The notes: generated by a model from the letters alone, not told the origin. A stretch of DNA of 32,000 nucleotides from Promethearchaeota archaeon (GCA_016933055.1 JAFGBS010000009.1:330001-362000); one strand, 5' to 3'. Shown: positions 1,135 through 23,658, numbered from the stretch's first letter. Numbers and translations are program-made.

Positions 1135-2085
1135 CTATATAACAAATGTGTCAAACTTAAATCCTTTAAAAAAACTAGCTGCAGATAATTTTTCCTTATC
1201 ATTCATCCAGGAATCTCTCGGATAACTGACTGGATGATCAATTGAGTGTGCTTTTTCGATCCAAAGGGGATTATAAGGGAGTAAATCTATTAAAGATATA
1301 TTAAGACTTTTTAAGAATTGAGCAATTTCTTTCAAATTATCAGATTTAATCGTGATGTGTGGTATTAACGGGATTCTTGGGACTAGCAAGGGTTTGGATG
1401 CGGGTATTTTTAGTTCACTATTATTTTTCGGAAGAGTAACTAGACCCTCTTTCACCAACTGTTTTAAATTTTCAAGAATGGTTACATTATCCACACCACA
1501 ATATTGAATATGTTTGTTTGAATTCATAATTTTTACGTCATAATATATGAATTGAACCTGTTCAAGTATCTTCTTTGTTTGAGAATTTAATGGAAATAAT
1601 CCACAAGTTTCAATTGCAATTCCTATATTAATTTCCCTCAATCTCATGATAAGATTTAGAATAAATTCAGGGAACATCATAGGTTCACCACCAGAGAGGG
1701 ATATACCTCCATTGGAATTTCTATAAAATATCATATTCGATCTAAATCGTTCTACTAGTTCATTTACTGTGTATAGTTTACCTGCAACTGAAAATACGTC
1801 TGCGGGACAATCTATGGTGCAGCATTGGGATAATATACATACAGATCTATTCAATACCATATTAGGATAATTAAATGCATCATTCGGACAATGCACGAAA
1901 CACTGAGGAGTGCAATGAATACAATTTTTCGGTTGATACACTAATTCGGGGTTGACATTTTGTGCCTCAGGATTCTGGCACCATACGCACTTTAGAGCGC
2001 ACCCCTTAAAGAATATCACACTTCGGATCCCTATCCCATCATCGAGTGAATTTTCTTTTATGTCAACAATATAAGGGACTTTCAT
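1135..2085 (-). CDS. Glycyl-radical enzyme activating enzyme (radical SAM, long form with ferredoxin-like insertion)
   Basis: DDGIGIRSVIFFKGCALKCVWCQNPE (CxxxCxxC), Cys-rich insertion CIHCTPQCFVHCP / CILSQCCTIDCP, GGISLSGGEP, AIETCG; 8 nt downstream of the GRE gene. Confidence 0.93.
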   Translation of the reverse strand: MKVPYIVDIKENSLDDGIGIRSVIFFKGCALKCVWCQNPEAQNVNPELVYQPKNCIHCTPQCFVHCPNDAFNYPNMVLNRSVCILSQCCTIDCPADVFSVAGKLYTVNELVERFRSNMIFYRNSNGGISLSGGEPMMFPEFILNLIMRLREINIGIAIETCGLFPLNSQTKKILEQVQFIYYDVKIMNSNKHIQYCGVDNVTILENLKQLVKEGLVTLPKNNSELKIPASKPLLVPRIPLIPHITIKSDNLKEIAQFLKSLNISLIDLLPYNPLWIEKAHSIDHPVSYPRDSWMNDKEKLSAASFFKGFKFDTFVI

Positions 2086-2093
2086 TGTAACTC

Positions 2094-5033
2094 CTATCTG
2101 AATTGATATCGCTCCAAGATCTCCATTTGCATGGTTTTGTTCAGTGATATGAAATAGGCATTGTATCCACTAACACGAATCATAAGCCATCGGTAATTTT
2201 CGGGATGCACCATTGCATCACGTAACATCTCTGAAGTAACTACATTAAATTGAATCTGTAACCCTGATAAATCAAAGTAGGATTTACTATAATCCGTAAA
2301 ATGCTGAACCGCAGTTTTATGCGGATCATTTGGTCCGGGTACTAATTTGACATTAAATGCGAGATTATTTGGAGTTTTCAAGTGGTCAATAGCAGCGACA
2401 GTTTTGATATTTTGGATGAGTTGGTCGGAGGAACCAGCTGAGGGTGTAATGCCTGGAGTAAAAGCTTTCCCACGCAAGCGTCCAGATGGGAGAGCACCCG
2501 ACAGTTTACCAAAAGCACTATGATTTGACATAGACCAAAATCCAACCATATATCTCCCCCCTCTGTAATTTTCGTGCTGGTAGTATTCATTATAAAGAAA
2601 ATCAACAAGATCATGAGCTAAACTCATTAGATCGGGATTATCTCCGGATCCAAATTTGGGTAGATTTGAAATGCGTTGAAGAATCACCTTATCTTCATTA
2701 TGAGAGAAATTTCTATCTAATATTTTTTTCAATGAGTATAAATCCAAAATTTTATCTTCATACACTAATTTTTTAATTGAATATAAGGAATCAATCACAT
2801 CGGTTAATGCCACTAACGCTACACCTGTGGAGTTATAGTGTGCACCCCCATCAACGACATCAGTTGCGGTTTCCACACAGTCCTCAATCATAGTAGAGAG
2901 AAAAGGTGTGGGATGATACTTTTGATGCATTATCCCACAATTATTGTTATATTCGACAGTGTGAGCGATCATATTCCCCATCTGCTTTTTATATCCATGT
3001 ACGACACTTTTAAATGTAGGGAAATGTTCGTTTGTAAATTCTCCCGTTGTTAATCCGACTTGAGGATGAATTAAAGGATGGTATCCATTTCCAAACAGCA
3101 TTTCTAATGGAGCAACAAGGTTTACCATAAGACATCCTGTGTGTCCGAAGTGTTTCCCGACACTAGTTGGTTCAACACACCCAGTAGCTGCCCAATTGTT
3201 TGCATCTTGTTCCGAAAATCCATGTACTTTCTGAACGGTTTCAATCATCAATTTGTCATTATGAATGCTTGGCGTAGACGTGGTATTGATGTTTACTTCA
3301 CATAACCGAGCGAGGTATTCATGAGAATTGAAATCTGGATGATATTTTGCATTTACGTTGGGATCCCGAATTGATAACATTTCGGTAACCTTCAAAAATA
3401 TGTAAGTGAGATCATTTACTGCATTTTTACCATTCACTGTAATCCCTCCAAGAGTGAGTGCTTGATCAGAGGAAGATCCTCCAAAAAGTTTATTTCCCAC
3501 ATTTGGAACCATTGGTAAATGATCTTGCGCTTTAAGATAAAAAGCTCCAATTAATTCAATAACTTTTCGAATGTATTGGTCTTGTTCAGATTCAGAGGAT
3601 AAGGTTTCCATATCTTTGAGAAAATAGGGATATAAAACTTGATCCAAGCGACCTAATGATAATCCTGCGTTCATATTTTCTTGATGTAGACATAGCCATG
3701 TAATCCAGATTGCAGTAATTGCTTCCCGAAAATTGCCTGCGGCTTTATTAGGAACTTGCTTAAGAACAGTATAAATTTCTGGCAAATTATTAGCATTCGA
3801 ATCATTTACATTTTTTATTTTTTTTAATTGCGATTCAACCTCTAATTTTAAATTTTCACCATATATTTGCATTCCTGCAAGGCATGCTTTCATCCCGGTA
3901 TAATACTGTTTTTTCTTTTCATTTTCAGTAATCAAAATTCTTTCATTAAATTCCTCAATTAAATTATTTAATCCATTATCTAAAATGACTGAAAAATTAG
4001 GTATGGTATGGCTTATGGCTTGGGTTTTCCATTCGAAGAAAAGGCTGAAGAATTCTTCCATCCGTTGAGATTTCGGATTATTAAAATGTGAACGAGCCAA
4101 CTCTCGTATGTTTCTATCCATCCAATAAGGATATACATATTTATTGAGGAGTTCAGCATCTTCTTCACTGATATGATAAGGATTTAACTCTCGACTCTGC
4201 ATGGTTGCGAGTTCTGGCCACATTCCTACTCCACCAAACTCTGGAAACAGTAAAACTCCAAGTTTTTTACTGGTAGTGCTTCCAGGAAGTAGGTCTCCTT
4301 CAAAGATTCTTGGAGTTTTATGGGATAAAAGGTATTTTAGCATCAAACCTTGACGCTCGCCAGCTTCCCATTCTGTTCCGTCTAATTTTCTCTCGAATCC
4401 ATTTTGCTTGAAAAATTGCGTTATAAGTTTTGCCCGTTCGGTGCAGAAATGGGCATGTGTAGAGAACCACTCATTTTTCATCCTCTCCAGAATTGGGAAA
4501 TCACGGAGCTTATATCTACCGAGGTAGGGATCTTTTAGAAACTGAACACCATCAACTTTTCTATCCAGTATCAGGTTTTCTTTCATTTTTATTTTCTCTT
4601 CTTCTTCTGTGATCTTTGTCGGAGGAGGGAAATTTTTGGATAGTTTCTTTTTTGGTTTGGTTGGAAAAATAGTAGAGAGGTAACTGAATTTACTAAGATG
4701 TGAGAGACTTCCAATATAGTATAACTCTCCCGAAAGTAACATATCTAATGATTGATCTGCAGAAATCGTTGCGGCGTACGCCATAGTTTTCTTATCTTTA
4801 TAAACTAAAGTTGTATCTGGATTTGGATGATGTTTAAGCAATTTCATGCGTCCATTATGAAATTTGATATAGATATTTGCATCTTCTAATCGAGTTGTTA
4901 TTCTCATTATAACATTGAACGCATAATCTTCTTCTGGGATGTAAATTTCCTCCCGAAACTTTGAAAATAATCGGAATTTTAAAGCCATTAACCGCAATCC
5001 CAATTTGAAGATAAAAATAGATGCCATAAGCAT
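2094..5033 (-). CDS. Glycyl radical enzyme (PFL2/dehydratase-eliminase class) with N-terminal SCP2-like domain
   Basis: Gly loop RVSGY (2163-2177), single-Cys loop GCVEP (3168-3182), SLGRLDQVLYPY, ALTLGG; ~120-aa N-terminal extension with an SCP2-like pattern. True start may be a later Met (e.g. MALKF, 4988). Confidence 0.9.
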   Translation of the reverse strand: MLMASIFIFKLGLRLMALKFRLFSKFREEIYIPEEDYAFNVIMRITTRLEDANIYIKFHNGRMKLLKHHPNPDTTLVYKDKKTMAYAATISADQSLDMLLSGELYYIGSLSHLSKFSYLSTIFPTKPKKKLSKNFPPPTKITEEEEKIKMKENLILDRKVDGVQFLKDPYLGRYKLRDFPILERMKNEWFSTHAHFCTERAKLITQFFKQNGFERKLDGTEWEAGERQGLMLKYLLSHKTPRIFEGDLLPGSTTSKKLGVLLFPEFGGVGMWPELATMQSRELNPYHISEEDAELLNKYVYPYWMDRNIRELARSHFNNPKSQRMEEFFSLFFEWKTQAISHTIPNFSVILDNGLNNLIEEFNERILITENEKKKQYYTGMKACLAGMQIYGENLKLEVESQLKKIKNVNDSNANNLPEIYTVLKQVPNKAAGNFREAITAIWITWLCLHQENMNAGLSLGRLDQVLYPYFLKDMETLSSESEQDQYIRKVIELIGAFYLKAQDHLPMVPNVGNKLFGGSSSDQALTLGGITVNGKNAVNDLTYIFLKVTEMLSIRDPNVNAKYHPDFNSHEYLARLCEVNINTTSTPSIHNDKLMIETVQKVHGFSEQDANNWAATGCVEPTSVGKHFGHTGCLMVNLVAPLEMLFGNGYHPLIHPQVGLTTGEFTNEHFPTFKSVVHGYKKQMGNMIAHTVEYNNNCGIMHQKYHPTPFLSTMIEDCVETATDVVDGGAHYNSTGVALVALTDVIDSLYSIKKLVYEDKILDLYSLKKILDRNFSHNEDKVILQRISNLPKFGSGDNPDLMSLAHDLVDFLYNEYYQHENYRGGRYMVGFWSMSNHSAFGKLSGALPSGRLRGKAFTPGITPSAGSSDQLIQNIKTVAAIDHLKTPNNLAFNVKLVPGPNDPHKTAVQHFTDYSKSYFDLSGLQIQFNVVTSEMLRDAMVHPENYRWLMIRVSGYNAYFISLNKTMQMEILERYQFR

Positions 5034-9859: not shown

Positions 9860-11071
9860 ATGAATTCTCTGGAAAGAGTAAAGGCAGCGCTTCATTTCTC
9901 AGGTCCTGATAAAGTTCCTTTGTTTTCTCAGAATTTAAAAACCGATGTATTGCCCTTGGCTATGCTTCCATCAAAGAATTGGCATCCAGGACATATACCT
10001 GAAGAAGAAGGCCTTTTTCCTCATCCCTTTGATGATTTTGTGGTAAATTTGGGTTTATATAAGTGGAAAAAACCCGATTGGGCAAAAAAAAACCCTAAAT
10101 ACAAAAAAAATAACTGGTTGAAATATCCTCGTGAAGAAATCGATGAATGGGGCTGCATATGGAATCGCTCGGGAGGAAATCAGACTATGGGACATCCAGG
10201 CCGAGCATCCATGCCCAGTTGGGGGGATTTAGATAAATACTTAGAATCTCATACTCCTGATCCCACAGATCGGACTAGATATTCCCTTTTTCTCAAATTA
10301 GGGAAAATAATAAGCCTTTTAGGATTTAAAAAGTATCGTGTTTGTGTTTTAGGTCACGTAGGTCCATCTCAAACTGCAAGTATGATAAGAGGTTTTAGCC
10401 CTTACCTCGTTGACCATGCCAAACATCCAAACGAATTAAAACGCTTGCTAGCTCATCTTACAGAGTTTTATGTGGAATGCATTAAAAATTGGATAAAATT
10501 TAGTGCAAAACCTCATGGATTCTTGCTTGTAGACGATCTGGGAGAGCAGTCAGGGCCCTTTTTCAGTCCCCGAACTTTCAAAAACTTTTACGAACCTGTC
10601 TACCGTACCATATTTCAAACTGCCCATGACTATGGATGTGAAACGCATCTGCATTGCTGTGGTAAAGTAGATAAACTTTTACCATCGTTGATTGAGTGGG
10701 GTTTAGATGCTATAGAGTTCGATAGTCCCCGTATGTCGGGATATACAGATCTCAAGCCGTATGTTGGGAAGATTATGTTTTGGGCATGTGCGAATATTCA
10801 ATCCATATATGTCAATGGGACTCCCGATGAAGTCAGGAAGGAGGTTTGGCATATGATGCGGAATCTTGGCACTAAAGAAGGAGGATTCGGGCTCTATCCA
10901 TATCCCCAACCCTATCATATTCACGTTCCTAAGAAGAACCAAAAAGCATTATATGAGGGTTTAAAGGAATTTGGTGACTATACCAAAATTCCCCCTTATT
11001 GGTGGGACTATCCAACTCCTGATGAGTGGGATAGGTATACAGTACCAGCACTTCCTCCTCTGAGTCCATAA
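9860..11071 (+). CDS. Uroporphyrinogen decarboxylase / MtaA-CmuA superfamily protein (URO-D-like, unknown function)
   Basis: MNSLERVKAALHFSGPDKVP, DEWGCIW, DDLGEQSGPFFSP, LHCCG(K)V, WGLDAIE. Confidence 0.85.
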   Translation: MNSLERVKAALHFSGPDKVPLFSQNLKTDVLPLAMLPSKNWHPGHIPEEEGLFPHPFDDFVVNLGLYKWKKPDWAKKNPKYKKNNWLKYPREEIDEWGCIWNRSGGNQTMGHPGRASMPSWGDLDKYLESHTPDPTDRTRYSLFLKLGKIISLLGFKKYRVCVLGHVGPSQTASMIRGFSPYLVDHAKHPNELKRLLAHLTEFYVECIKNWIKFSAKPHGFLLVDDLGEQSGPFFSPRTFKNFYEPVYRTIFQTAHDYGCETHLHCCGKVDKLLPSLIEWGLDAIEFDSPRMSGYTDLKPYVGKIMFWACANIQSIYVNGTPDEVRKEVWHMMRNLGTKEGGFGLYPYPQPYHIHVPKKNQKALYEGLKEFGDYTKIPPYWWDYPTPDEWDRYTVPALPPLSP

Positions 11072-11250: not shown

Positions 11251-12498
11251 TTATGCATGATCTGCGAGAGATTTTGCTAATATTTCTCCAATATCCAAAA
11301 CAGGATCCCCATCATTAAACATGAATCCTTCTTCACATGCGGGACATGCTGAAACGATGTACTCTGCTCCTGTTTCTTTTAATTGGGCCACTCTTTGCTT
11401 TCCTATGGCATCAGATATTTCAGGATGATGCACATGACTAACTCCGCCTCTGCCACAACACTGGGTGATATCCCCATGTAAATATACTTCACGAAAATCC
11501 AGATCGGGAATCAGAGAAAATATGAACCGTGCATTTTCTATGTCGATTGTACCCATTTTTCCTCTGCTAGAAATACAGGGATCATGATAGGTGATTGAAA
11601 GGGGGACGGACTTTTCAGGTTTGATTTTCCCTTCTTCCAAAAGTTTACGATAAAATTCTACAGAAGTATATACCTTATAATTATGCTTGCATCCTAGAGT
11701 TTTGTAAGTATTACGGATTGAGTTAGTACATGCAGGGCAATCGGTAACTATGATTTTCGCTCCGGCTTTATTAAATAATGCTATATTTTTCTCTGCGAAA
11801 TATTTTGCAGAATTTAGGAGGCCTAATGTATGTAAAGGTCCTCCACAGCAAGTTCTTTCATCTGCATACATACAAAAGCGAATACCTGCCTTTTGGAGGA
11901 TTTTAATATTCGCTTTTACTGCTGCAGGCTTTTTCTCCGCCATTACACAACCTGTGTAGTAGAACACTTCTGGATTTTCCATATTTACATTCAAATCTTC
12001 AATCTGAGTGAATGTATCTTGTTCAAATGCTGTTTGTTTCTCCATCACCCTGGCATCAAACTCTTTGACTCCGGGGATATAAATTTCTCTGTTAATTAAA
12101 TCCGCTCGGACTTGGGTTAGTAAATCTCCCGTAGAGATGTCCATTGGGCACCAATTTCTACATCCGTCGCAGTTTGTGCACATATATGCGACTTCTGCCG
12201 TATGCAAGTCGGTCATGTCTAAATTTTTCCTCTCCATATGGTAAGAAATACGAGATTTTGTGGCTGGTGCATACATTTCCTTGTGCGTTACCCGAAGGGA
12301 TGGACACTCAAACCTACACATATTGGGACACAAAGCACATTTGAGTAATTCTTTCATATCTACATGAGTTTCCTTCACATAATAGAAATCTTTTTCGTGT
12401 CGAAATCCTTGAATAGTTTTTTTAATATCCTTAAAAGAACCCGAAAAAAATACTTTCACTATCCATTTATATTTCTTAATTTTAGCTAATAATCCCAA
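11251..12498 (-). CDS. CCG-domain Fe-S protein (GlpC/GlcF/HdrD-like electron-transfer subunit)
   Basis: Two 4Fe-4S motifs (CALCPNMCRFECP, CTNCDGCRNWCP), YYTGC, two CCG motifs, TDCPAC, TYHDPC, SACPAC. Confidence 0.88.
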   Translation of the reverse strand: MGLLAKIKKYKWIVKVFFSGSFKDIKKTIQGFRHEKDFYYVKETHVDMKELLKCALCPNMCRFECPSLRVTHKEMYAPATKSRISYHMERKNLDMTDLHTAEVAYMCTNCDGCRNWCPMDISTGDLLTQVRADLINREIYIPGVKEFDARVMEKQTAFEQDTFTQIEDLNVNMENPEVFYYTGCVMAEKKPAAVKANIKILQKAGIRFCMYADERTCCGGPLHTLGLLNSAKYFAEKNIALFNKAGAKIIVTDCPACTNSIRNTYKTLGCKHNYKVYTSVEFYRKLLEEGKIKPEKSVPLSITYHDPCISSRGKMGTIDIENARFIFSLIPDLDFREVYLHGDITQCCGRGGVSHVHHPEISDAIGKQRVAQLKETGAEYIVSACPACEEGFMFNDGDPVLDIGEILAKSLADHA

Positions 12499-12510
12499 AA
12501 TGCAACTCTC

Positions 12511-13971
12511 CTATTCTCGTTCCGGTTCATCATATAATTTTCCAGGATTCATTATGTTGTTAGGATCTATGACATGTTTGATTTTCTTCATTAAATCTAA
12601 TACTGGACCATGTTCGTCTCGCATCCAACGTGCTCTATTTATACCAATACCATGATGATGGGATATCGATCCTCCTGAATTCAGTGTAGCTATCATAGCT
12701 GCATCCCATGCACTATTGTAGAATTCCTCTGGGCTTTTTCCTTCAGGAACAATTCCACTAAATGTAAAGTAAAAACACACACCATTGGGATAAAAATGAG
12801 AAGCATGACCCGATGCAAGTAATAAACCATCGAGTTTTTTCAATTCATTGATAACGGAGTGATATAAATGAACCGCATCGTCCCACATGCATGAAATCTC
12901 AATTGTGTCTGCAATTTGCCCCTTTGGCATATAAACGGAGGTTTCTTTGACATTAAATCGGGTTTCAAACCAATGATCCACTGGATTTTTTCCACAATCT
13001 GTTCCATTGCATTCCAAGCATGTTTTTCGAATCTCTGAGATTTCAAGCTCAACCAAAGATGAAATGGGTGCCTCGCAGACAAAAATTACCATCAGCCTAT
13101 TTTTTGCTTGTGGTTCATTATAGAAATGCCGTTCAGTTTCCTGTTTATCGTAAATGCGAACAACAGCAGGATAAATTTGCTTTTGTAAAATTAACTGAGT
13201 AGCCTTTAAACTGTCTTCTATAGCATCAAACGCAAAGGATACACCTTGTTGCTTTTCAGGTAGTGGCCACATTATCATAGTTGCTTGAGTGACTATACCT
13301 AGTGTGCCCTCGGAACTTAAAAATAAACGTTCAATTTGCGGTCCGTTGGATGCACGAGGGTATAATTTTGTATCTATAATTTCTCCATTAGGGAGAACCA
13401 CTCGCATACTTAAAACAATATCTTCAATTTTACCGTATTTAGTCGAGAATTGACCTGCTGCTCGATGAGCAATCCAACCTCCTACAGTAGAAGTATGGAA
13501 ACTTTGCGGTACATGACCGATAAGAAATCCCTTCTGTTCTAATTGTCTTTCTAGCCATTTACCATTAGCACCAGTTTGTACGGTAACTGTTAAGTTTTGT
13601 TTGTTAACTTCAATTATGTCAGTCATTCTTTTCATATCGAGCATGATCCCCCCGTATACGGGGATGGCTGCGCCTACAACACCTGATCCCTCTCCATAAG
13701 GAACCACAGGTATTTTTTTTCGATTTGCACATATTAATATCCGGGATATTTCTTCCTCATTTTCTGGCCAGACAATAACATGGGGTAATCCGGGGACCTT
13801 ATTTTCCATGATCCAGCGATTTGTAATTAATTGATAGTCTTTTGAATACGCAACAAGATCAGCTTCTTCAGTAGAAACCCAATCGGGTCCGACAATTTCT
13901 GATAATTCAGTAACTAAAGCGTTCAAATCATCAATTTTAACCCGTTTTTTATACACAACATCAAACTTCAT
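12511..13971 (-). CDS. FAD-binding oxidoreductase (VAO/PCMH family), alkyl-dihydroxyacetonephosphate synthase-like
   Basis: PYGEGSGV, GHVPQSFHTSTVGGWIAHRAAGQFSTKYGKIED, SSEGTLGIVT, PAVVRIYD, CFYFTF, SHHHGIG (HHH at 12652-12660), IDPNNIMNPGKL. Confidence 0.88.
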   Translation of the reverse strand: MKFDVVYKKRVKIDDLNALVTELSEIVGPDWVSTEEADLVAYSKDYQLITNRWIMENKVPGLPHVIVWPENEEEISRILICANRKKIPVVPYGEGSGVVGAAIPVYGGIMLDMKRMTDIIEVNKQNLTVTVQTGANGKWLERQLEQKGFLIGHVPQSFHTSTVGGWIAHRAAGQFSTKYGKIEDIVLSMRVVLPNGEIIDTKLYPRASNGPQIERLFLSSEGTLGIVTQATMIMWPLPEKQQGVSFAFDAIEDSLKATQLILQKQIYPAVVRIYDKQETERHFYNEPQAKNRLMVIFVCEAPISSLVELEISEIRKTCLECNGTDCGKNPVDHWFETRFNVKETSVYMPKGQIADTIEISCMWDDAVHLYHSVINELKKLDGLLLASGHASHFYPNGVCFYFTFSGIVPEGKSPEEFYNSAWDAAMIATLNSGGSISHHHGIGINRARWMRDEHGPVLDLMKKIKHVIDPNNIMNPGKLYDEPERE

Positions 13972-14103: not shown

Positions 14104-14463
14104 ATGACTTATCTTGAAGATATTCCCGCATTAATTTATACGATGTTATACACTCATAATAAGGACGGTAGACTCCGTAAAGCTACGGAACACAAAAAAC
14201 TCAGTATTTTATTTGATTTTCCGGACTTTCCTCCCGCAGCTTTATTAAAGATACAAAATGGTAATTATGAAGTCTTAAGTGTAGAAAATCCCGAGGGTAT
14301 CTCGGCGGATGCAATCATAAAAGGGAATTTTGAAGATATTGTCGAGTTATCTGGAGGCTTTGGAAGGGGGATCAGTCTTCTCTTAACGGGAAAAGTGAAA
14401 ATAAAAGGGCTTCTAAAAGCGATAACGTTGCTTAAAATCTTGGGGGAAAAGGAGGTGTTGTGA
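14104..14463 (+). CDS. Stand-alone SCP2 (sterol carrier protein 2) lipid-binding domain protein
   Basis: LLKIQNGNYEV...ADAIIKGNFEDIVEL...LLLTGKVKIKG...LLKIL is the SCP2 pattern. Confidence 0.8.
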   Translation: MTYLEDIPALIYTMLYTHNKDGRLRKATEHKKLSILFDFPDFPPAALLKIQNGNYEVLSVENPEGISADAIIKGNFEDIVELSGGFGRGISLLLTGKVKIKGLLKAITLLKILGEKEVL

Positions 14464-15585
14464 TTGAGGGAAATTATGACAAGTTATGAACGTTCTATTG
14501 CTGCAATTGAACATAAATCCGTTGATCGGTTTCCTATTATATCCCTAGGTGTCGATTATGCTTTTTACAATGAATTTATGGAGGAAATTGGTTTCACACC
14601 AGAAGAAGTAAAGCAATATGCAACTGATGGGATATTAACTGGACCTCCTTGGTCACATGGTGTGAATGTAAAATTAGGTGTGGATATCGATTGGACTTCT
14701 ATGAGAGCCAGACAACATTATGATCATGAGACCCATCAAATTCTAGATACATTTGGAGGAATTGATAAAGTTGTGGTGAATGATAGTGGTATTCCCCATT
14801 TGTGGTATGTTAAACCATTCCTTACGTCCAAGGAAAAAATTAAAGACTGGTGGAATTTGGGGAGACCGAAACCTTACACGAACGCTATGATCAAACCTTT
14901 AGTAAAAATTATGCAGACGCTTATAGATAAATACCAAATGTTAAGTATGATTGGCTTACCAGGTCCATGGGAAAACTTGCATATGTCAATTGGAATGGCA
15001 CAAGTTGCGAAATTTTGTCGAAAAGATCAACGATTTCTCGAGGAGATTTTGGAAAAAAATTTTGAAGTTCAAGGAGATGGTTTGGAGCGTATAATGAAAT
15101 TAGGAAATCCTCCCGTTGTCATGTGTGGCGATGACTATGGATTCAATCAAGGTCTCCAAATGCCTATTAAATATTGGAGACAATTTATCAAGCCCATCTT
15201 AAAAAGGTATGTAGAAATCGTACATAGTTATGGATCTAAATTTCTATTACACTCTTGTGGTAGCATAGGAGATATTTTTTCCGACTTAATAGAAATCGGA
15301 GTGGAGGGTGTGGAATCTCTGCAACCAACGATAAATGATCTTGTGACGCTCAAACACAAATACGGGGATAAAATCGCATTATTAGGAACGATAGATGATA
15401 CTAATCTCTTGGTGAGGGGGACAACCGAGCATGTTTGGAGTGAAGTAACGAATTCAGTTAAGTTATTGGGAAAGGAAAGTGGGTATTTGCCGGGTGCAAC
15501 AAATACGCTCCTTAATGCGAAAGTTAGTAATGTGAAGACTATGATTGAAGCAATTCAAAGTATGAATCCTCAATATGTAATTTAA
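14464..15585 (+). CDS. Uroporphyrinogen decarboxylase / MtaA-CmuA superfamily protein
   Basis: MTSYERSIAAIEHKSVDRFP, DTFGG, CGDDYGFNQGLQM, LLHSCG, IGVEGVESLQP, LLGTID. TTG start 6 nt after GGAGGTG (14451-14457). Confidence 0.87.
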   Translation: MREIMTSYERSIAAIEHKSVDRFPIISLGVDYAFYNEFMEEIGFTPEEVKQYATDGILTGPPWSHGVNVKLGVDIDWTSMRARQHYDHETHQILDTFGGIDKVVVNDSGIPHLWYVKPFLTSKEKIKDWWNLGRPKPYTNAMIKPLVKIMQTLIDKYQMLSMIGLPGPWENLHMSIGMAQVAKFCRKDQRFLEEILEKNFEVQGDGLERIMKLGNPPVVMCGDDYGFNQGLQMPIKYWRQFIKPILKRYVEIVHSYGSKFLLHSCGSIGDIFSDLIEIGVEGVESLQPTINDLVTLKHKYGDKIALLGTIDDTNLLVRGTTEHVWSEVTNSVKLLGKESGYLPGATNTLLNAKVSNVKTMIEAIQSMNPQYVI

Positions 15586-16422: not shown

Positions 16423-18204
16423 TCAGTTATTATTGGTAAACACTTTTCTCTCTTTTAACATCGCCTTGAATATTTTTTCATAATAAATTTGATTTTTAAC
16501 TTGAGGTTTATTGATATCCAATGTGACATTGTATAGATAAGCATTTTTTTGGTCATATACTATTGAAGCTCTTACAATATTTCCATCTAACTCAAATTCT
16601 GCATCAATTGCTCTCCGTGTCAATTCTTCCGTCTCCTCCGTTTCTGCACTTATCATTTCTATTGAATCTAACCATTCATTGAAATTATCCATATTCAATT
16701 TTTCGTCAAAATTTAAAAATACCGATAGTGTATCATCTAATCGTTTTGTCATCCATTGGAGGGTCCTCAAAATCAGAAAAACGAGTCCAACCCATAAAAT
16801 AAGATTTATGCCAAACCATAAAATGACACCCCAAGGACCAGATGGAAGAGATAATCCAAATAACCTTGGAAAAGTTTCTTCAGTAGAAAAACTATATTCC
16901 CCCACAATTAATGCTAGGATCTCAAAAGCTAATGAGCCTGACATAATCACTTCCAATATCTGCATTTTATTTTCTTGACGTTCCGCTGATTTGAACATAC
17001 GACGTTGAATCTGAGCAGTATCTTTTATACCCCGAAAAATCTGTTGAAGGCGTTTTTCTTGGATTACAGATATTTGATTTTGAAGGTTAGTTACTTCATT
17101 TTCTAACCCTTTTATGAGATCAGCAATATCATCAGCGCGTTCCCAATTTGATTGTAAAGTCTCTCTAATTTCCAAAATATCAGAAAATTGAGATAGATCT
17201 TCATTGAAATGTTTCTTGTGTACATTATATTCATCAAATGCATCCTTGATAGAATTTTTTATAAAAGAACTCAATTCAGACATTAACACACATTCTGCTG
17301 TAACAGCTGCCAATGTCTCTTGTGCTTTTCCAACTGCACGCGGGTCTGTGTGGAAGTTATTCGTCATCTCTTTTACTTCCTTAATCTCATCACTCACACT
17401 AAAAAAGAGATTGAAATAATTAGAAATAAACACGCTAACTGAGCGTGCAAAAGCAAATTGCACTAAAATCGGTTCATAATACGATAAATCTTTACTTATT
17501 AATATAGCTCCTGCGGTTCCGATGAAAACCTTATCTCCGTTTTTTAAATCCTTTGCTTTTTCAATATAATCCAAAATTTGACGCAGTTCTGATTCCTTTT
17601 CTCTCTTATCTAAGTATTCCTCAGCGGTTAAATTCGGTTCCATCGACTCTCCTAAAATCATGAAATATTTTTGGCGATAAAGTGCTCTTCCATAATAATT
17701 AAGATTCAGTAGTTCACGTTGATGTTCAGATAATAAATCATGTAATAGTTTTGATGAATCAAATGCAATATCGGTACTTAAGCGAGGAATATAATCTAAA
17801 TACAGTATATCACTCCTTCCTTGTGCTTCTATTACATCTATCCCACAAATTACTCTACCATATTGGCTGATCGATATTCCTATTTGTTCTTTTTGGATAA
17901 TACCTTGCTCTTCCGGATACATTATTTCTGTCACAAAATTAGAATACTCTGAAAGGGAGAATGACAATAATTCAACTTGTGTTTCTATAGATGAAGTTTC
18001 AACAACAGTAGAATTTGGGAGTTTATCGCGATCGGCAGTAATATACGTTTTTTTAATGTCATTAAAAGCATTTAGTTTTGTATTAAATGCAAACATTTCA
18101 TTACGATGAAATGGAATATATTCTGAAACTAACAGCTTCAAGTTTCTTATTCCGAGAATTTCGGTAAGGCTATTATCTCGTATATTGTGTATTTTCTGAT
18201 TCAT
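16423..18204 (-). CDS. Hypothetical membrane protein with CorA-like architecture (alpha/beta domain, long helices/coiled coil, two TM helices, C-terminal soluble domain)
   Basis: Coiled coil DLIKGLENEVTNLQNQISVIQEKRLQQ, then TM segments ILEVIMSGSLAFEILALIVG and GVILWFGINLILWVGLVFLIL; no GMN motif. Start set at ATG 18204 (MNQKI), 10 nt after GGAGGT; the ORF track gives 18222. Confidence 0.7.
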   Translation of the reverse strand: MNQKIHNIRDNSLTEILGIRNLKLLVSEYIPFHRNEMFAFNTKLNAFNDIKKTYITADRDKLPNSTVVETSSIETQVELLSFSLSEYSNFVTEIMYPEEQGIIQKEQIGISISQYGRVICGIDVIEAQGRSDILYLDYIPRLSTDIAFDSSKLLHDLLSEHQRELLNLNYYGRALYRQKYFMILGESMEPNLTAEEYLDKREKESELRQILDYIEKAKDLKNGDKVFIGTAGAILISKDLSYYEPILVQFAFARSVSVFISNYFNLFFSVSDEIKEVKEMTNNFHTDPRAVGKAQETLAAVTAECVLMSELSSFIKNSIKDAFDEYNVHKKHFNEDLSQFSDILEIRETLQSNWERADDIADLIKGLENEVTNLQNQISVIQEKRLQQIFRGIKDTAQIQRRMFKSAERQENKMQILEVIMSGSLAFEILALIVGEYSFSTEETFPRLFGLSLPSGPWGVILWFGINLILWVGLVFLILRTLQWMTKRLDDTLSVFLNFDEKLNMDNFNEWLDSIEMISAETEETEELTRRAIDAEFELDGNIVRASIVYDQKNAYLYNVTLDINKPQVKNQIYYEKIFKAMLKERKVFTNNN

Positions 18205-18206
18205 AC

Positions 18207-18893
18207 CTATTGTAACCTCCATTCTTCTGGTTCTTTATCATCATTCCTCTCTTTAGCACGTAGGAATATTTTGATGGTTTTTTTATCATCGATTTGAAGA
18301 TATCCGTATTTTTCATCTCGCCTTGCATAGTTAATATAAAAAGGAAATTTTGGAAAATAAGGTTTAGAGGAATAAGATATATCTTCGATCGTTGTAATAT
18401 CAGAATCAGTCCGTGAATTGCATGATTTGCACATCAGATAAATATTATCTTGGGGGTTTTTCTCGTATCGAACACTCAACAACTCATTGCATTGATTACA
18501 CCGAATAATTTTATCCATCTTTCTCATGTATTCTTCGGGAATTCCAATTTTAAAGCCCTTTTTAGTCACTCGGTAGGCAGAAATCATTTTGGAGCTTTGA
18601 GAAATCAATTTTAAACATTCCACAAGATCTAATTGTCTGAGATCAACAATATCGTCTTCGGCTTCTTGGCTAATATTAAAAAACATTCGCCCATTGACCG
18701 TATCGACACTCAATGGTGCATAATCATAACCCGTAAATACTTGATCGATAATTCCTTGAAAAATAAAAGTTCGCAATGCCAATTCCTTTAACCAGACATC
18801 TGGATCCTCTAAATTTCTCCCTATATTCGAAAATTGGGAAATCAAGTAAAGTAGTTTTTTCTGGTCATCAGTTAATTCTAATGGAGACATCAT
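18207..18893 (-). CDS. Hypothetical protein, winged-helix-like domain plus Zn ribbon
   Basis: LTDDQKKLLYLIS..., YDYAP, NISQEAEDDIVDL, wing motif AYRVTKKG, then CNQC/CKSC. Confidence 0.72.
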   Translation of the reverse strand: MMSPLELTDDQKKLLYLISQFSNIGRNLEDPDVWLKELALRTFIFQGIIDQVFTGYDYAPLSVDTVNGRMFFNISQEAEDDIVDLRQLDLVECLKLISQSSKMISAYRVTKKGFKIGIPEEYMRKMDKIIRCNQCNELLSVRYEKNPQDNIYLMCKSCNSRTDSDITTIEDISYSSKPYFPKFPFYINYARRDEKYGYLQIDDKKTIKIFLRAKERNDDKEPEEWRLQ

Positions 18894-18934: not shown

Positions 18935-18955
18935 AAAAAAAGATTTGTAAAAAAA
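18935..18955 (-). terminator. Putative oligo-T terminator after the kinase gene
   Basis: Two T7 tracts (18949-18955, 18935-18941) on the minus strand just downstream of the stop at 18968. Confidence 0.4.
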
Positions 18956-18967
18956 TAAATCTTGAAT

Positions 18968-20506
18968 CTATTTCACAATACGTACGGCATTAACTGCCTT
19001 ATTCCATCGTATTAATTTCTCCTTTCGTTTTTCGGGATCCATTTTTGGGATAAACTCGGTATAATCTAATTTCAAGGATTTTAATTCCGTTAGATCTTTC
19101 CAAAAACCTACACCGAGACCGGCAAAAAAAGCAGCACCAGTTGCTGTCATATCCGCTTCTGGTGCTCTTTTCACTACAAAGTTTGCAAAATCTGCCATTG
19201 CTTGAAGTTCGATATCAGATTTACTTACTCCGCCATCTACTTTGATGCTTTTTATTTTTGTATTTGTGTCTTGTTCAATTCCCTTGATGATATCATACAC
19301 GCGCAAGGCTAGCCCTTCCAAAACAGCCCTGGCTACATGACGTCTATGTGTAGTAAGGGAAAGTCCAAAAATTGCTGCCCGACAGGAAAAATCGAAAATA
19401 GGGAACTGAATGCCTGTGGGAGCAGGTACGAATACCACACCTTCTGTATCTTCCGTTTCTGAGGCGAATTCATTTAATACTTTTGGTGTATCTGACAATC
19501 CAATTCCCTCTCCTAACCAATCAATCAATGTTCCTGCTGTTGCCACTTGTCCTTCTAGCAAATAGGTGGCTTTTCCGTCAATAAACCATGCAATGAGAGG
19601 ATATAATCCCCGTTTGGAAATTTTTGGATTCTCACCTACTGTGACATCCACAAAAATACCCGATCCTTGAGATACTTTAACATCACCTGGTTCAAAACAT
19701 TGTTGACCGAACAATGCACACTGTTGATCACCACCTGCAGCATGAATGGGGATCTCTATACCAAATAATGACTTATGGGTCATTCCAAACAAGGAATTGG
19801 TTTCTAATACTTGGGGAAATCCCTCAATGGGCAAATTAAACATATTACAATATATCTTATTCCATTCCATATCGAATGGATTAAAAAGTCCCGTGCTTGC
19901 GGCATTAGTGTAATCGGTAACATGTGACTTTTTCCCAGTTAGGTTATAAATAAACCATGTGTCCAATGTTCCAAAAATTATTTCCCTCTTTTTTAACCGA
20001 TCTCGTAAATCTGGTTGGTTGTCGAGTAACCATTTTAGTCTCACTGTCGCCTGCGCTGGATCAAATTTGAACATAGAGGTGGTTTTCATCATAACACTAC
20101 TACTGATTGCCCCGATAATTTTAGTAATTCCTTTGAGAAACCGCCATTTACCCTTTTCATTCATTTTCTCTGCTGTTTCAACAGAGCGAATATCTGCCCA
20201 GCTTATAAAATTAGTTACTGGTTTTCCTGTTTCTTTCTCCCATAAACAAAAAGAACCTCGTTGATTGCTGATCCCAATCGCAGCAATATCTTCAGCTAAA
20301 AATCCTTTATTCAGAACACTTTTTACCACACTCAATAAAGCATTCCATAATTCTTGGGGGTTATCCTCAATTGCGCCCTCTTCAGGATGTAGAGGATTTG
20401 TTTTTTGATATTCTCGGGCTACGATATTCGCATGTTTATCAAATAAAATTGCTCGTATACCAGTAGAACCCGAATCGATACTAAGTATATATTTTTTTTC
20501 ACTCAT
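18968..20506 (-). CDS. glpK: FGGY-family glycerol kinase, GK5-like subtype
   Basis: SIDSGSTGIRA, GISNQRG, FGTLDTWFIYNLTG, TDYTNAASTGLF, GGDQQCALFG, KVDGGVS, TATGAAFFAGLGVGFW. Has a helical insertion and NQRG/DPAQ substitutions relative to canonical GlpK. Confidence 0.85.
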   Translation of the reverse strand: MSEKKYILSIDSGSTGIRAILFDKHANIVAREYQKTNPLHPEEGAIEDNPQELWNALLSVVKSVLNKGFLAEDIAAIGISNQRGSFCLWEKETGKPVTNFISWADIRSVETAEKMNEKGKWRFLKGITKIIGAISSSVMMKTTSMFKFDPAQATVRLKWLLDNQPDLRDRLKKREIIFGTLDTWFIYNLTGKKSHVTDYTNAASTGLFNPFDMEWNKIYCNMFNLPIEGFPQVLETNSLFGMTHKSLFGIEIPIHAAGGDQQCALFGQQCFEPGDVKVSQGSGIFVDVTVGENPKISKRGLYPLIAWFIDGKATYLLEGQVATAGTLIDWLGEGIGLSDTPKVLNEFASETEDTEGVVFVPAPTGIQFPIFDFSCRAAIFGLSLTTHRRHVARAVLEGLALRVYDIIKGIEQDTNTKIKSIKVDGGVSKSDIELQAMADFANFVVKRAPEADMTATGAAFFAGLGVGFWKDLTELKSLKLDYTEFIPKMDPEKRKEKLIRWNKAVNAVRIVK

Positions 20507-20624
20507 TAGAATTACACCATAACATGCTCATCTATACACTAACTATGATGGAATTCTCTATTTAACAGTTCTTATACCCGAAAAAAAAGAAACAGAAATA
20601 TTTGCTAATATCTCCATTATATAA

Positions 20625-20960
20625 TTAACTTTCAAGTTCCAATAAGTTTCTTATAAATTTCTTTCTTAATCCATCAATTCCGAACAACTCTTTGAAGTAG
20701 TATTTATTTTCGTTGGGTAGGTAAATTACTGGAGTGTATACAGTACAACCCTCTATATCACAAAATGTCTGGATGAACATCTCATTATGTAACAATTTGT
20801 CCACGACTTGCTGGTCCTCTACTGACCATTCCTCAAATCTAATGTCCTCTTCCTTTAACCAACTTTTCAAATCTGAGCATTTACTACAATTTTCTTTCGT
20901 AATTACTTTAAATTCTTTCATGATTGCTTTGAATTTAAAAAACATCTTAAGTATTCTCAT
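20625..20960 (-). CDS. Glutaredoxin/thioredoxin-fold protein (CSKC)
   Basis: KVITKENCSKCSDLKSWL...YTPVIY. Probable start is the Met at 20921. Confidence 0.75.
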   Translation of the reverse strand: MRILKMFFKFKAIMKEFKVITKENCSKCSDLKSWLKEEDIRFEEWSVEDQQVVDKLLHNEMFIQTFCDIEGCTVYTPVIYLPNENKYYFKELFGIDGLRKKFIRNLLELES

Positions 20961-21085
20961 TTACTGAACAAATTTTTTTCTCAATTTTTTCCTTTGAAAA
21001 TTTTGTATATCTTCAAGCTAACTTATTACAAATTAATAAAATATATTCTGATTGTCACAGAATTTTTTTTTTGATTGGGTGAATG

Positions 21086-21093
21086 TTTATATT
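21086..21093 (+). promoter_or_regulatory. Putative TATA box for the leaderless grx-FTR unit
   Basis: TTTATATT 24-31 nt upstream of ATG 21117. Confidence 0.4.
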
Positions 21094-21116
21094 TAATTTG
21101 AAATGAGTAAAGAATT

Positions 21117-21425
21117 ATGACTGAAACTATACAACGCATTAACTATACTTTTGAGGGTAATAAGGATATTGGGAAAGATGTCACCGTATATGCTCTTTCA
21201 ACATGCGGTTTCTGCCGTCGAGCTCTTCAATTCTTACGAGATGCTGACTGTAAATTCAAATTTGTCTATGTGGATAAACTCCCATACGAAACCAAACAAC
21301 AATTAAAAGAAGAACTACAAGATAGATATGAAAAACGAGTAGTATTTCCTTATTTAGTTATAGATGACTCAGATGTACTTGCTGGTTTCGTAGAAGAAGA
21401 TTGGAAAAACACCTTAGGACTTTAA
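21117..21425 (+). CDS. Glutaredoxin (NrdH/Grx-like, CGFC)
   Basis: VTVYALSTCGFCRRA, VVFPYLVID, LAGF. Confidence 0.88.
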   Translation: MTETIQRINYTFEGNKDIGKDVTVYALSTCGFCRRALQFLRDADCKFKFVYVDKLPYETKQQLKEELQDRYEKRVVFPYLVIDDSDVLAGFVEEDWKNTLGL

Positions 21426-21446
21426 TTTATCTATTACTATGATATA

Positions 21447-21797
21447 TTGATCATTATGCCAAATAGGAAAACACTGAAGGATACAGAAAAATTTGTATTT
21501 ATGGTAGCGGAAAAACAGGATTGGGAACTACATCCAGATAAAGAATTCTTAAAAATGCTATGTGAGGGATTAACCGAGAACTGGAATCGATATGGTTACT
21601 ATTCATGTCCATGTAGGGACGGATCTGGAAGTAAAATAACCGATAATGATATCATCTGCCCATGTGATTATTGCGAACCAGACCAACAAGAATATGGACA
21701 CTGTTATTGTGGATTATATTTAACAAAGGAATTTGCAGCCACAGGAAAAATACCCAAATACATACCCGAACGTAGACCAGAAGAAAAAATCCAATAA
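21447..21797 (+). CDS. ftrC: Ferredoxin:thioredoxin reductase catalytic subunit-like protein
   Basis: YGYYSCPCR, ICPC, GHCYCGLY (CPC/CPC/CxC cluster and disulfide motifs). Likely start is ATG 21456. Confidence 0.9.
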   Translation: MIIMPNRKTLKDTEKFVFMVAEKQDWELHPDKEFLKMLCEGLTENWNRYGYYSCPCRDGSGSKITDNDIICPCDYCEPDQQEYGHCYCGLYLTKEFAATGKIPKYIPERRPEEKIQ

Positions 21798-21804
21798 GCT
21801 ATAA

Positions 21805-23658
21805 TTATATTAAATTGCAAATTCGTTCATTTTTTTTTATCCCTTTCAAAATTTGGATAAATCTATGATTCCAAAGTGTAGATAAATAAGTACTTATTTG
21901 CTCATGAAAGGAATTATTCGCTATATCAGTACGATGGATATTAAGGGATGGAGTCTCCGTTAATATTTGCTGAATATGAGAATCTAGCATTACACTAAAA
22001 TTGTATATTCCTTCCCAATTTACCTGGATTGATTGGATCCATTCATTATACTCAGATATCGATAAATATAGTAAAACCATAACCCCATTCAGCAACGTAT
22101 ACAACTTTTGGTACAAATCAGAATTAGTGGACTGGAATCCCATGTAAGAAAGAGAATTTGATAGAAAGTGAAACAATCGATATGTTGTTTCATCATTTTT
22201 AGGGACGCAGTAATAAGGAACTTGCTTTAAATAGATGAAATCTAACCGAGTAGACCGGATTGCACCTGCGTAGACAATTTTATATAAATACCATGCGAAA
22301 AGTTTGGAATTAAGATAACATAATAGATAAACCCTAAGAAATTCATTAGTTAATGGCTTTTTTAACTCTTTAAGGAAAATGTTTACTACTGTATCAAAAC
22401 ATACATATTTACCTGATGGGGGTCTTCTGCTAAAAACTAGTTTATAATGGGGAACTGGCTTTTTTACATGAGCATTTGCAAGCTGTCCTAGTATTTCCCC
22501 CAAAAATGTTGTTTTTCCGTCTAATATACTTCTGCAGATTCCTTTCCTAATAGGTTTTATATGAAATTGCCCAATTAGTTTTCCCTCGATACAGAAAAGG
22601 AAATTATTTTGGTAACGATTTATGGTTTTAGCTTGGTTTTGAATGTTCAGGCCCCTATATGCTTTAATACAACTTTCTAGAGTTTTTTTATGTATTTGCA
22701 AGTCTTGATATAACAAATATTCTTGATGAGTCAAACTCAAGATCAATGAATTTTTTTTAATTTTTTCCGTTTTCTCAATAGATATTCGACTTCCTTCGTT
22801 AGTCTCAGTAATATAATGCGTTCTAGATGCATCTTTTCCTGTAACAAGTAAAATTTGCTCCAATTTTACCTTATTAAACGCTTTACTAATATCTTGGATA
22901 AATATTAAATCTCTAAGAATACATATTTTCAAGGAATTCCACCGTCTACTGTATGCGAGAGATTTAGGGAGAATAAAACCCATTTTTCCTTTTTTTTTTA
23001 GAAGAGCTTTGCATAATAGGAAAAAATACGCAGCAGAATTTTGAATAATTGATGGATATAGCTTTCTCATACGTTTTAGGTGTGCCGTTTCTATGAATGC
23101 ATTGTAGGGAGGATTACATAATATTACGTCATATTTTTTGTCCGGGTCATATATATCGAAGAAATTTGCATATTGGATGGTTTGTAATAAATTATGGCAT
23201 TCATTTTTGATTACAGATAAAGAAAAGGGATTTTTTTTATGAAGAGGATTTAAAGACCAATATACAAGTCGTAATCTGCAGAGTTCTACTGTCTTATTAT
23301 TTATATCAAAACCATAAAGGCAATTATGCACAATCTTTTTTCGAATTTTCACTTCCTCATTATCCGAAATTATTTTTCCAGCAAGAATCACAGATAAAAC
23401 GTAATTTGCTGCTGCTATCAGAAACTCTCCGAGACCGCATGCAGGATCTAATATCTTAATATTGAGTAAATCTTCTACTTTTTTATCATTGAAACAATTT
23501 TCAGTTAATTTCACGGCAATATCAGGGGGTGTAAAAAAAGAACCAAGATTCTTATTCAAAAATTGTGGATAAATCTGAGAGAAAAGTTTTGCATTTCTCT
23601 CTTCTTCTGTCCATTTCGGGTTTGTATATATTTCGTAAAGTATCTGATCAATTTCCAT
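21805..23658 (-). CDS. N6-adenine DNA methyltransferase, gamma class (TaqI/Eco57I-like) with C-terminal TRD
   Basis: GSFFTP, ILDPACGLGEFL, LYGFDIN, ILCNPPY, GKMGFILP, YLLCYLNSKLF. Confidence 0.87.
   Translation of the reverse strand: MEIDQILYEIYTNPKWTEEERNAKLFSQIYPQFLNKNLGSFFTPPDIAVKLTENCFNDKKVEDLLNIKILDPACGLGEFLIAAANYVLSVILAGKIISDNEEVKIRKKIVHNCLYGFDINNKTVELCRLRLVYWSLNPLHKKNPFSLSVIKNECHNLLQTIQYANFFDIYDPDKKYDVILCNPPYNAFIETAHLKRMRKLYPSIIQNSAAYFFLLCKALLKKKGKMGFILPKSLAYSRRWNSLKICILRDLIFIQDISKAFNKVKLEQILLVTGKDASRTHYITETNEGSRISIEKTEKIKKNSLILSLTHQEYLLYQDLQIHKKTLESCIKAYRGLNIQNQAKTINRYQNNFLFCIEGKLIGQFHIKPIRKGICRSILDGKTTFLGEILGQLANAHVKKPVPHYKLVFSRRPPSGKYVCFDTVVNIFLKELKKPLTNEFLRVYLLCYLNSKLFAWYLYKIVYAGAIRSTRLDFIYLKQVPYYCVPKNDETTYRLFHFLSNSLSYMGFQSTNSDLYQKLYTLLNGVMVLLYLSISEYNEWIQSIQVNWEGIYNFSVMLDSHIQQILTETPSLNIHRTDIANNSFHEQISTYLSTLWNHRFIQILKGIKKNERICNLI

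Follow-up and report, generated by a model that had tools for sequence, protein, structure and literature searches.

An FGGY kinase of a Promethearchaeota archaeon very likely belongs to the glycerol kinase 5 subfamily and carries an altered glycerol pocket

The kinase gene considered here raises the question of whether an archaeal protein that resembles glycerol kinase is an ordinary GlpK or a relative of animal glycerol kinase 5 (GK5), and what such an enzyme might phosphorylate. The gene occupies 18968..20506 on the minus strand of the window, by which we mean the whole 32,000-nucleotide stretch of Promethearchaeota archaeon DNA that was analyzed (GCA_016933055.1 JAFGBS010000009.1:330001-362000). 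On translation, this entry in the list of open reading frames gives 512 codons from an ATG start with no internal stops, and the 512-aa product carries in a single chain both Pfam domains that mark the FGGY superfamily and its actin-like ATPase fold (FGGY_N, 8e-52, 176.7 bits; FGGY_C, 6e-27, 95.1 bits). The strong matches among solved structures are all glycerol kinases, the best being S. aureus 3G25 (E 2e-108), and the predicted structure of the window kinase (pLDDT 91) has TM scores of 0.85-0.90 to GlpK structures. The resemblance to canonical GlpK, as represented by the E. coli (1GLA/1BU6), S. aureus (3G25), and T. kodakarensis (6K78) enzymes and the TIGR01311 family, thus extends to the fold, the catalytic Asp, and the ATP motifs, at 35-37% identity. 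The window kinase differs from canonical GlpK in lacking the equivalents of Glu84 and Tyr135, in carrying a 16-residue insertion, in branching outside the GlpK clade, and in missing both NCBIfam GlpK cutoffs, with 455.5 bits against the 590.35 required by TIGR01311 and 455.8 bits against the 498 required by NF000756.

The differences are concentrated in the substrate pocket. In established GlpK structures, E84 and Y135 form hydrogen bonds with glycerol hydroxyls, and together with R83, W103, D245, and F270, they make up the full set of glycerol contacts, four of the six being kept in the window kinase. All of the codons concerned lie on the minus strand. Pairwise alignment to the S. aureus and Enterococcus GlpK proteins, together with re-translation, places NQRG (aa 81-84, 20255..20266) against NQRE, so that R83 is kept and Glu84 is replaced by Gly, and DPAQA (aa 149-153, 20048..20062) against DPYFS, with Tyr135 replaced by Ala and Phe136 by Gln. 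The glycerol-stacking Trp of GlpK is retained as W103 (20198..20200), which is invariant in the family alignment, the catalytic base Asp245 as D260 in GGDQQ (19727..19729), aligned to GDQQ of GlpK, and Phe270 as F285 in GSGIF (19652..19654). Near the N-terminus, D11 (20474..20476) of the phosphate-binding loop DSGSTG, aligned to DQGTTS of GlpK, is invariant in 55 family members. Both the loss of E84 and the retention of the other four contacts had been proposed in the initial annotation of this DNA and are borne out by these alignments.

The same pattern is found across 341 homologues in the 33-37-aa insertion state, over which the residue counts were taken. The equivalents of R83 and D245 are present in all 341, W103 in 338, and F270 in 336, whereas position 84 is A, G, S, or N in 337 and Glu in a single sequence. 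With only 1 of the 341 insertion-bearing relatives having Glu84, the loss of E84 and Y135 and the presence of the insertion are, judging from the alignments, traits of the subfamily and not chance changes. The DPAQA loop also stood as originally described, including the loss of Y135, but it is not the typical form: DPAQ is a minority state (A in 10/341, Q in 52/341), and the norm of the subfamily is TTDH in Asgard archaea and Leptospira and TTQH in animals. The loop His, found in 239/341, is missing from the window kinase, which has D-P-A-Q instead of T-T-[DQ]-H and has lost both the Tyr and the Phe.

The second distinguishing feature is a helical hairpin at aa 119-145 (20072..20152, minus strand), which emerges from both the alignments and the structure models and contains 16 residues absent from GlpK. 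The stretch KWRFLKGITKIIGAISSSVMMK corresponds to aa 120-141 of the re-translated window kinase, and the 16 extra residues as placed by alignment are aa 131-146 (nt 20069-20116, minus strand), between the W103 region and the loop equivalent to DPYF. In pairwise alignments to the S. aureus and Enterococcus enzymes, the gap on the GlpK side is 14-16 residues; over the span of P0001 residues 112-146, multiple alignments give 35 aa for the window kinase versus 17-20 aa for canonical GlpK, from which the size of 16 aa follows. The insertion of about 16 aa is therefore present where it had been proposed, and its length equals that in all named animal GK5. AlphaFold models the hairpin as two helices (119-135 and 138-145) with pLDDT of 88-93 and predicts the same two helices in animal GK5 (139-155 and 158-165; overall pLDDT 91), while profiles of the Asgard/prokaryotic and animal GK5 proteins align over 515 columns without a gap, insertion included.

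The pocket and the hairpin, which lies just before the altered loop, invite a reading in which the enzyme phosphorylates a 1-O-alkyl- or 1-O-acyl-glycerol, the open pocket admitting the substituent and the amphipathic insertion docking on membrane or lipid. It is consistent with this reading that the lost residues are the hydrogen-bond partners of glycerol hydroxyls other than via the catalytic base and that the hydrophobic moment reaches 0.45-0.60 over aa 117-139. However, most members have polar residues (D/Q and H) and not greasy ones in place of those lost, and the insertion is confidently modeled as part of a globular protein in both the archaeal and the animal enzymes. GK5 had also been a candidate for the orphan animal alkylglycerol kinase, an idea weakened by a preprint that assigns this activity to ACAD10, an unrelated kinase. 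On this evidence and that of the gene neighborhoods described below, phosphorylation of a 1-O-substituted glycerol is not favored and appears improbable.

Placement of the window kinase relative to GlpK and GK5 was addressed with an IQ-TREE phylogeny of 88 rows and 470 columns, from which the insertion, the loop, and position 84 had been removed and for which two further FGGY paralogues encoded in the same genome served as the root. The insertion-bearing proteins form one clade (support 99/96), within which all named animal GK5 fall into a eukaryotic clade (100/97), the sister of a prokaryotic one (97/87). The prokaryotic GK5 clade is mostly Asgard, with Spirochaetes (Leptospira) and Bathyarchaeia inside it. 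One part of it, group A (100/100), places the window kinase beside the proteins of Lokiarchaeum ossiferum and Harpocratesius and also includes other Asgard lineages, a Bathyarchaeota metagenome-assembled genome (MAG), Leptospira, and other Spirochaetes; the second part, group B, consists of Promethearchaeota proteins 39-43% identical to the window kinase, which share its insertion state and its loss of E84. The first outgroup is a group with a 45-residue insertion from Theionarchaea, Thermoplasmatota, Actinomycetota, and Planctomycetota, followed by short forms without E84 and then by canonical GlpK. Branching with ordinary GlpK would have spoken against a GK5-type enzyme; a topology constrained to unite groups A and B with canonical GlpK cost 109 log-likelihood units and was rejected by the AU test (p-AU 2e-7), while a single bacterial subclade was not rejected (p-AU 0.14).

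Similarity searches point in the same direction. In a search of 1.8 billion representatives, named animal GK5 proteins rank directly behind the prokaryotic relatives and include those of Styela, sandfly, Anopheles, beetle, spider, and mite. With Styela GK5 as the query, chordate, annelid, and insect GK5 were recovered, and with P0126 as the query, mollusc and echinoderm members. All of the named animal GK5 have an insertion of identical length and lack both Glu84 and the Tyr-Phe pair. The sequence motifs given in the initial annotation as typical of metazoan GK5 are all found in the animal sequences, in the forms NFISWQDLRA, F.F.TQHVSLRL.W.L, GDVK, and G.YPLIGW, but GDVK is not specific, as some canonical GlpK proteins have it too. 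The scores below both GlpK cutoffs, the common insertion and pocket changes, and the clade shared with animal GK5 uphold the earlier proposal of a GK5-type enzyme in place of an ordinary GlpK, and we regard it as very likely, on these sequence comparisons, that the window kinase is a member of the GK5 subfamily. The GK5 label itself is already in public databases: NCBI applies the name 'glycerol kinase 5' to relatives 53-64% identical to the window kinase in Promethearchaeota, Hodarchaeales, and Thorarchaeota MAGs, and UniRef does likewise for the Leptospira relatives. What the window gene gains is a better name, GK5-type and not GlpK, and no new kind of system is implied.

The likeness to animal GK5 (e.g., Styela clava XP_039262763 and Anopheles gambiae Q7QJM6) extends to the two-domain FGGY fold at 34-38% identity, the insertion of equal length with the same two predicted helices, the position in sister clades, the change of Glu84 to a small residue, the replaced DPYF loop, and the retained equivalents of R83, W103, D245, and F270. 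The insertion and pocket changes that define GK5 would predate animals. The window kinase differs from animal GK5 in its archaeal host, in having no N-terminal extension, in having no possible SREBP partner, and in its DPAQ and NQR/GSG motifs as opposed to TTQH and TQR/GTG. Animal GK5 is a poorly understood enzyme linked to lipid synthesis in the skin, and no structural study is known to have addressed its true substrate; mouse Gk5 is the protein of Zhang et al. (2017, PNAS 114:E5197). Archaea are not known to have SREBP. This bears on the notion that the window kinase might be a noncatalytic, regulatory protein by analogy with SREBP-binding mouse GK5, for which the emphasis of the animal GK5 literature on a regulatory role in skin lipid synthesis could be cited; with the catalytic and nucleotide-binding residues invariant across the 341 homologues and no SREBP known in archaea, such a role is highly improbable.

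The intactness of these residues in the 341 homologues instead argues for an active enzyme. The window kinase would be a soluble FGGY kinase of the GK5 subfamily with its catalytic machinery intact. Using ATP, it may phosphorylate glycerol, or a small alcohol resembling glycerol, at a primary hydroxyl, and the rest of the substrate molecule would be read differently from the way it is read by GlpK. A difference of this kind would imply a role separate from housekeeping glycerol catabolism, and an active GK5-subfamily kinase with such a separate role is the reading toward which we lean, with somewhat more confidence than doubt.

The most serious competitor is that the window kinase is simply the housekeeping glycerol kinase of this organism, converting glycerol to sn-glycerol-3-phosphate, which a GlpD/GlpA-type dehydrogenase would then convert to dihydroxyacetone phosphate (DHAP), with the pocket changes tuning kinetics or regulation. 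A search with the GlpK models found no canonical GlpK in this genome, which is 91% complete, and the window kinase is its best GlpK-model match. The genome does encode one glycerol-3-phosphate-dehydrogenase-type protein of the GlpD/GlpA kind, its sole gene with DAO and DAO_C domains (L033 3953-6928 = G000:C17:217952-220927), and this combination means that the window kinase could be its glycerol kinase. The retained equivalents of R83, W103, D245, and F270 would suit such a function, as would the glycerol kinase activity in vitro that PMC6473107, citing Zhang 2017, reports for mouse GK5; if GK5 is active on glycerol, the pocket changes need not alter the substrate. Against this stand the subfamily-wide loss of E84 and Y135 and the presence in the same genome of a second FGGY paralogue with all six GlpK glycerol contacts, including NQRE and DPYF (L002 1456-2979, minus strand = G000:C28:110152-111615). 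This paralogue scores 376 bits against XylB (cutoff 380) and 350 bits against GlpK, branches outside GlpK plus GK5, and has orthologues in order-level relatives, which likewise lack canonical GlpK. Furthermore, a true GlpK occurs beside a close relative of the window kinase in five other genomes: all four of the Asgard genomes of family f22 and Leptospira combine a close relative with a GlpK above the cutoffs. Animals, too, have GK5 alongside GK. Weighing both sides, we consider the housekeeping reading a possibility to be taken seriously, though a distinctly less likely one than a separate role. Neither the NQRE paralogue nor the GlpD-type gene lies in a context that hints at function; the latter adjoins a prokaryotic ketohexokinase-family gene and no FGGY kinase. 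A GpsA-type domain did not turn up in the genome at its 91% completeness.

A different kind of indication comes from the group-B kinases. In four genomes of order-level relatives, from three genera, and in one metagenome contig, the kinase gene lies 24-184 nt downstream of genes for an AGPS-like flavoprotein and a CCG Fe-S protein, with which it forms an operon; an alpha/beta hydrolase gene comes next in L020 and in three (L022-L024) of the four genomes that were fetched. Orthologues of the flavoprotein and Fe-S pair occur in the window at 11251-13971 (minus strand), where a FAD_binding_4/FAD-oxidase_C flavoprotein gene is followed by that of a CCG Fe-S protein (GlpC/TfrB-like); the pair is 55-58% identical to the group-B operon copies, and among solved structures the flavoprotein matches AGPS best (2UUU, 213 bits), ahead of D-lactate dehydrogenase (145 bits). 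The coexistence of close relatives with GlpK, together with the group-B operon, suggests a distinct role. For a 1-O-substituted glycerol substrate, the presence of an AGPS-like flavoprotein and of a lipase-type hydrolase in the operons of the sister-group kinases, the AGPS match of the window flavoprotein, and the SCP2 genes nearby would count as support. However, the Fe-S protein that accompanies the AGPS-like enzyme speaks for net redox chemistry and not for ether synthesis, and the window gene is not directly linked to the AGPS-like pair. In contrast to the group-B genes, that of the window kinase, a group-A member, is probably monocistronic and is separated from the flavoprotein pair by 5 kb.

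Coupling of the window kinase to the AGPS-like pair was considered as a conserved feature and rejected, as the two are not contiguous in the window and the pair is missing at the other group-A loci. In a genome of the same family, the kinase and the AGPS-like pair are on different contigs, and the f22 genomes with close relatives of the kinase have no close AGPS-like orthologue. The flavoprotein pair of the window is flanked by two URO-D/MtaA-like genes and a small SCP2 gene, at 9860-11071, 14104-14463, and 14464-15585, all on the plus strand.

Comparable arrangements exist in bacteria. In Pseudomonas aeruginosa, the PA3026-PA3024 operon of the GliR regulon combines the genes for an FGGY kinase, a GlpD homologue, and a FAD enzyme annotated as AGPS; its function is described as unsolved (PMC8151288). 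A bacterial GlpK-like kinase without E84, P0133, is encoded in a similar operon with GlpA/B-like genes and a homologous SHHHG flavoprotein. Kinases of the P0133 type differ from the window kinase in having no insertion and in branching outside the GK5 clade. A URO-D gene, like those flanking the window pair, also occurs in a bacterial operon (L028), together with genes for a B12-binding protein, two FGGY kinases, GlpA/B-like proteins, and a homologous SHHHG flavoprotein behind a GlpP antiterminator.

A more far-reaching scenario would be that Asgard and animal GK5-type kinases act on one and the same substrate, as yet undescribed and either derived from glycerol or similar to it, whose phosphate ester feeds the AGPS-like flavoprotein and Fe-S enzyme in a route of glycerolipid or ether-lipid salvage or breakdown, inherited by animals, via GK5 and AGPS, from an Asgard-related ancestor. 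We regard this as a long shot. Independently of that scenario, the nearest prokaryotic relatives of GK5 are mostly Asgard, and a sister-group kinase is wired to an AGPS-like redox enzyme, so these prokaryotic proteins and operons may offer a tractable route to what GK5-type kinases phosphorylate.

The relationship to eukaryotes also requires a qualified statement. The initial annotation had raised the possibility of a protein shared with eukaryotes, and this is upheld insofar as the sister clade of animal GK5 is mostly Asgard; the case is weakened by the Spirochaetes and Bathyarchaeia within that clade, by the patchy distribution in Asgard archaea, and by the restriction of the named eukaryotic members to animals. 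In a survey of 201 sampled Asgard genomes of the phylum, close copies, defined by an identity of at least 55%, occur in seven genomes of two families, and copies of 39-43% identity, assigned to group B through operon context and the named group-B sequences, occur in nine genomes, all of the same one order. Look-ups of P0126 and P0125 in the atlas gave only animal or bacterial clusters, and no named protist GK5 was found. The deep unnamed rows of the eukaryotic clade come from eukaryote-like contigs that are poor in genes, where the neighbors are reverse transcriptase, protein kinase, or faintly Ig-like genes, and one row of this clade is a EukProt transcript. The topology fits Asgard ancestry, but with so patchy a distribution and only animals on the eukaryotic side, transfer is as viable as descent; Asgard ancestry of animal GK5 is thus possible from the tree, and both descent with massive loss and transfer in either direction are possible histories. 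The result bears weakly on the wider subject of lipid-related genes common to eukaryotes and Asgard archaea, and the literature searched contained no papers on GK5 in archaea. On one eukaryote-like metagenome contig (L016 6001-10556), two FGGY genes of 520 and 509 aa lie in tandem, one of which is a deep-branching GK5-type row of the tree (P0231).

The immediate surroundings of the window kinase gene suggest that it is expressed on its own. Read directly from the sequence, a T-rich tract (20581..20598, minus strand) comes after the glutaredoxin-like gene upstream; an AT-rich region comes next, with GGTG 8 nt before the kinase ATG, and two T-tracts directly 3' of the kinase TAG stop (18935..18960, minus strand) form a putative terminator. 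The upstream tract, which may act as terminator or promoter, suggests that the kinase gene has its own transcription start, and these elements together indicate that it is probably transcribed alone, as a monocistronic unit. Among sequencing runs, the stretch is present in one sediment metagenome, and no RNA sequencing run containing it is listed.

No conserved, function-informative neighborhood of the kinase was found in L. ossiferum, Leptospira, three Asgard contigs, and a spirochaete-type genome, and the loci of close relatives have in common with the window only glutaredoxin, ferredoxin-thioredoxin reductase, N6-methyltransferase, or URO-D-like genes. Directly downstream of the kinase, two overlapping genes (16423-18893, minus strand) encode a 228-aa protein with a CxxC...CxxC ribbon and a 599-aa protein; this pair has no Pfam match and is not beside the kinase in the relatives' loci examined. 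On the other side, 20625-23658 holds a glutaredoxin-like gene, a glutaredoxin, the ferredoxin-thioredoxin reductase beta subunit, and an MmeI/Eco57I-type N6-methyltransferase, a run that shows partial synteny with the kinase locus of L017, a 62%-identical relative, and in another relative (L018), the N6-methyltransferase directly follows the kinase. Farther away, at 1135-5033 on the minus strand, the window encodes a glycyl-radical enzyme (PFL-like plus Gly_radical, 979 aa) and its radical-SAM activase.
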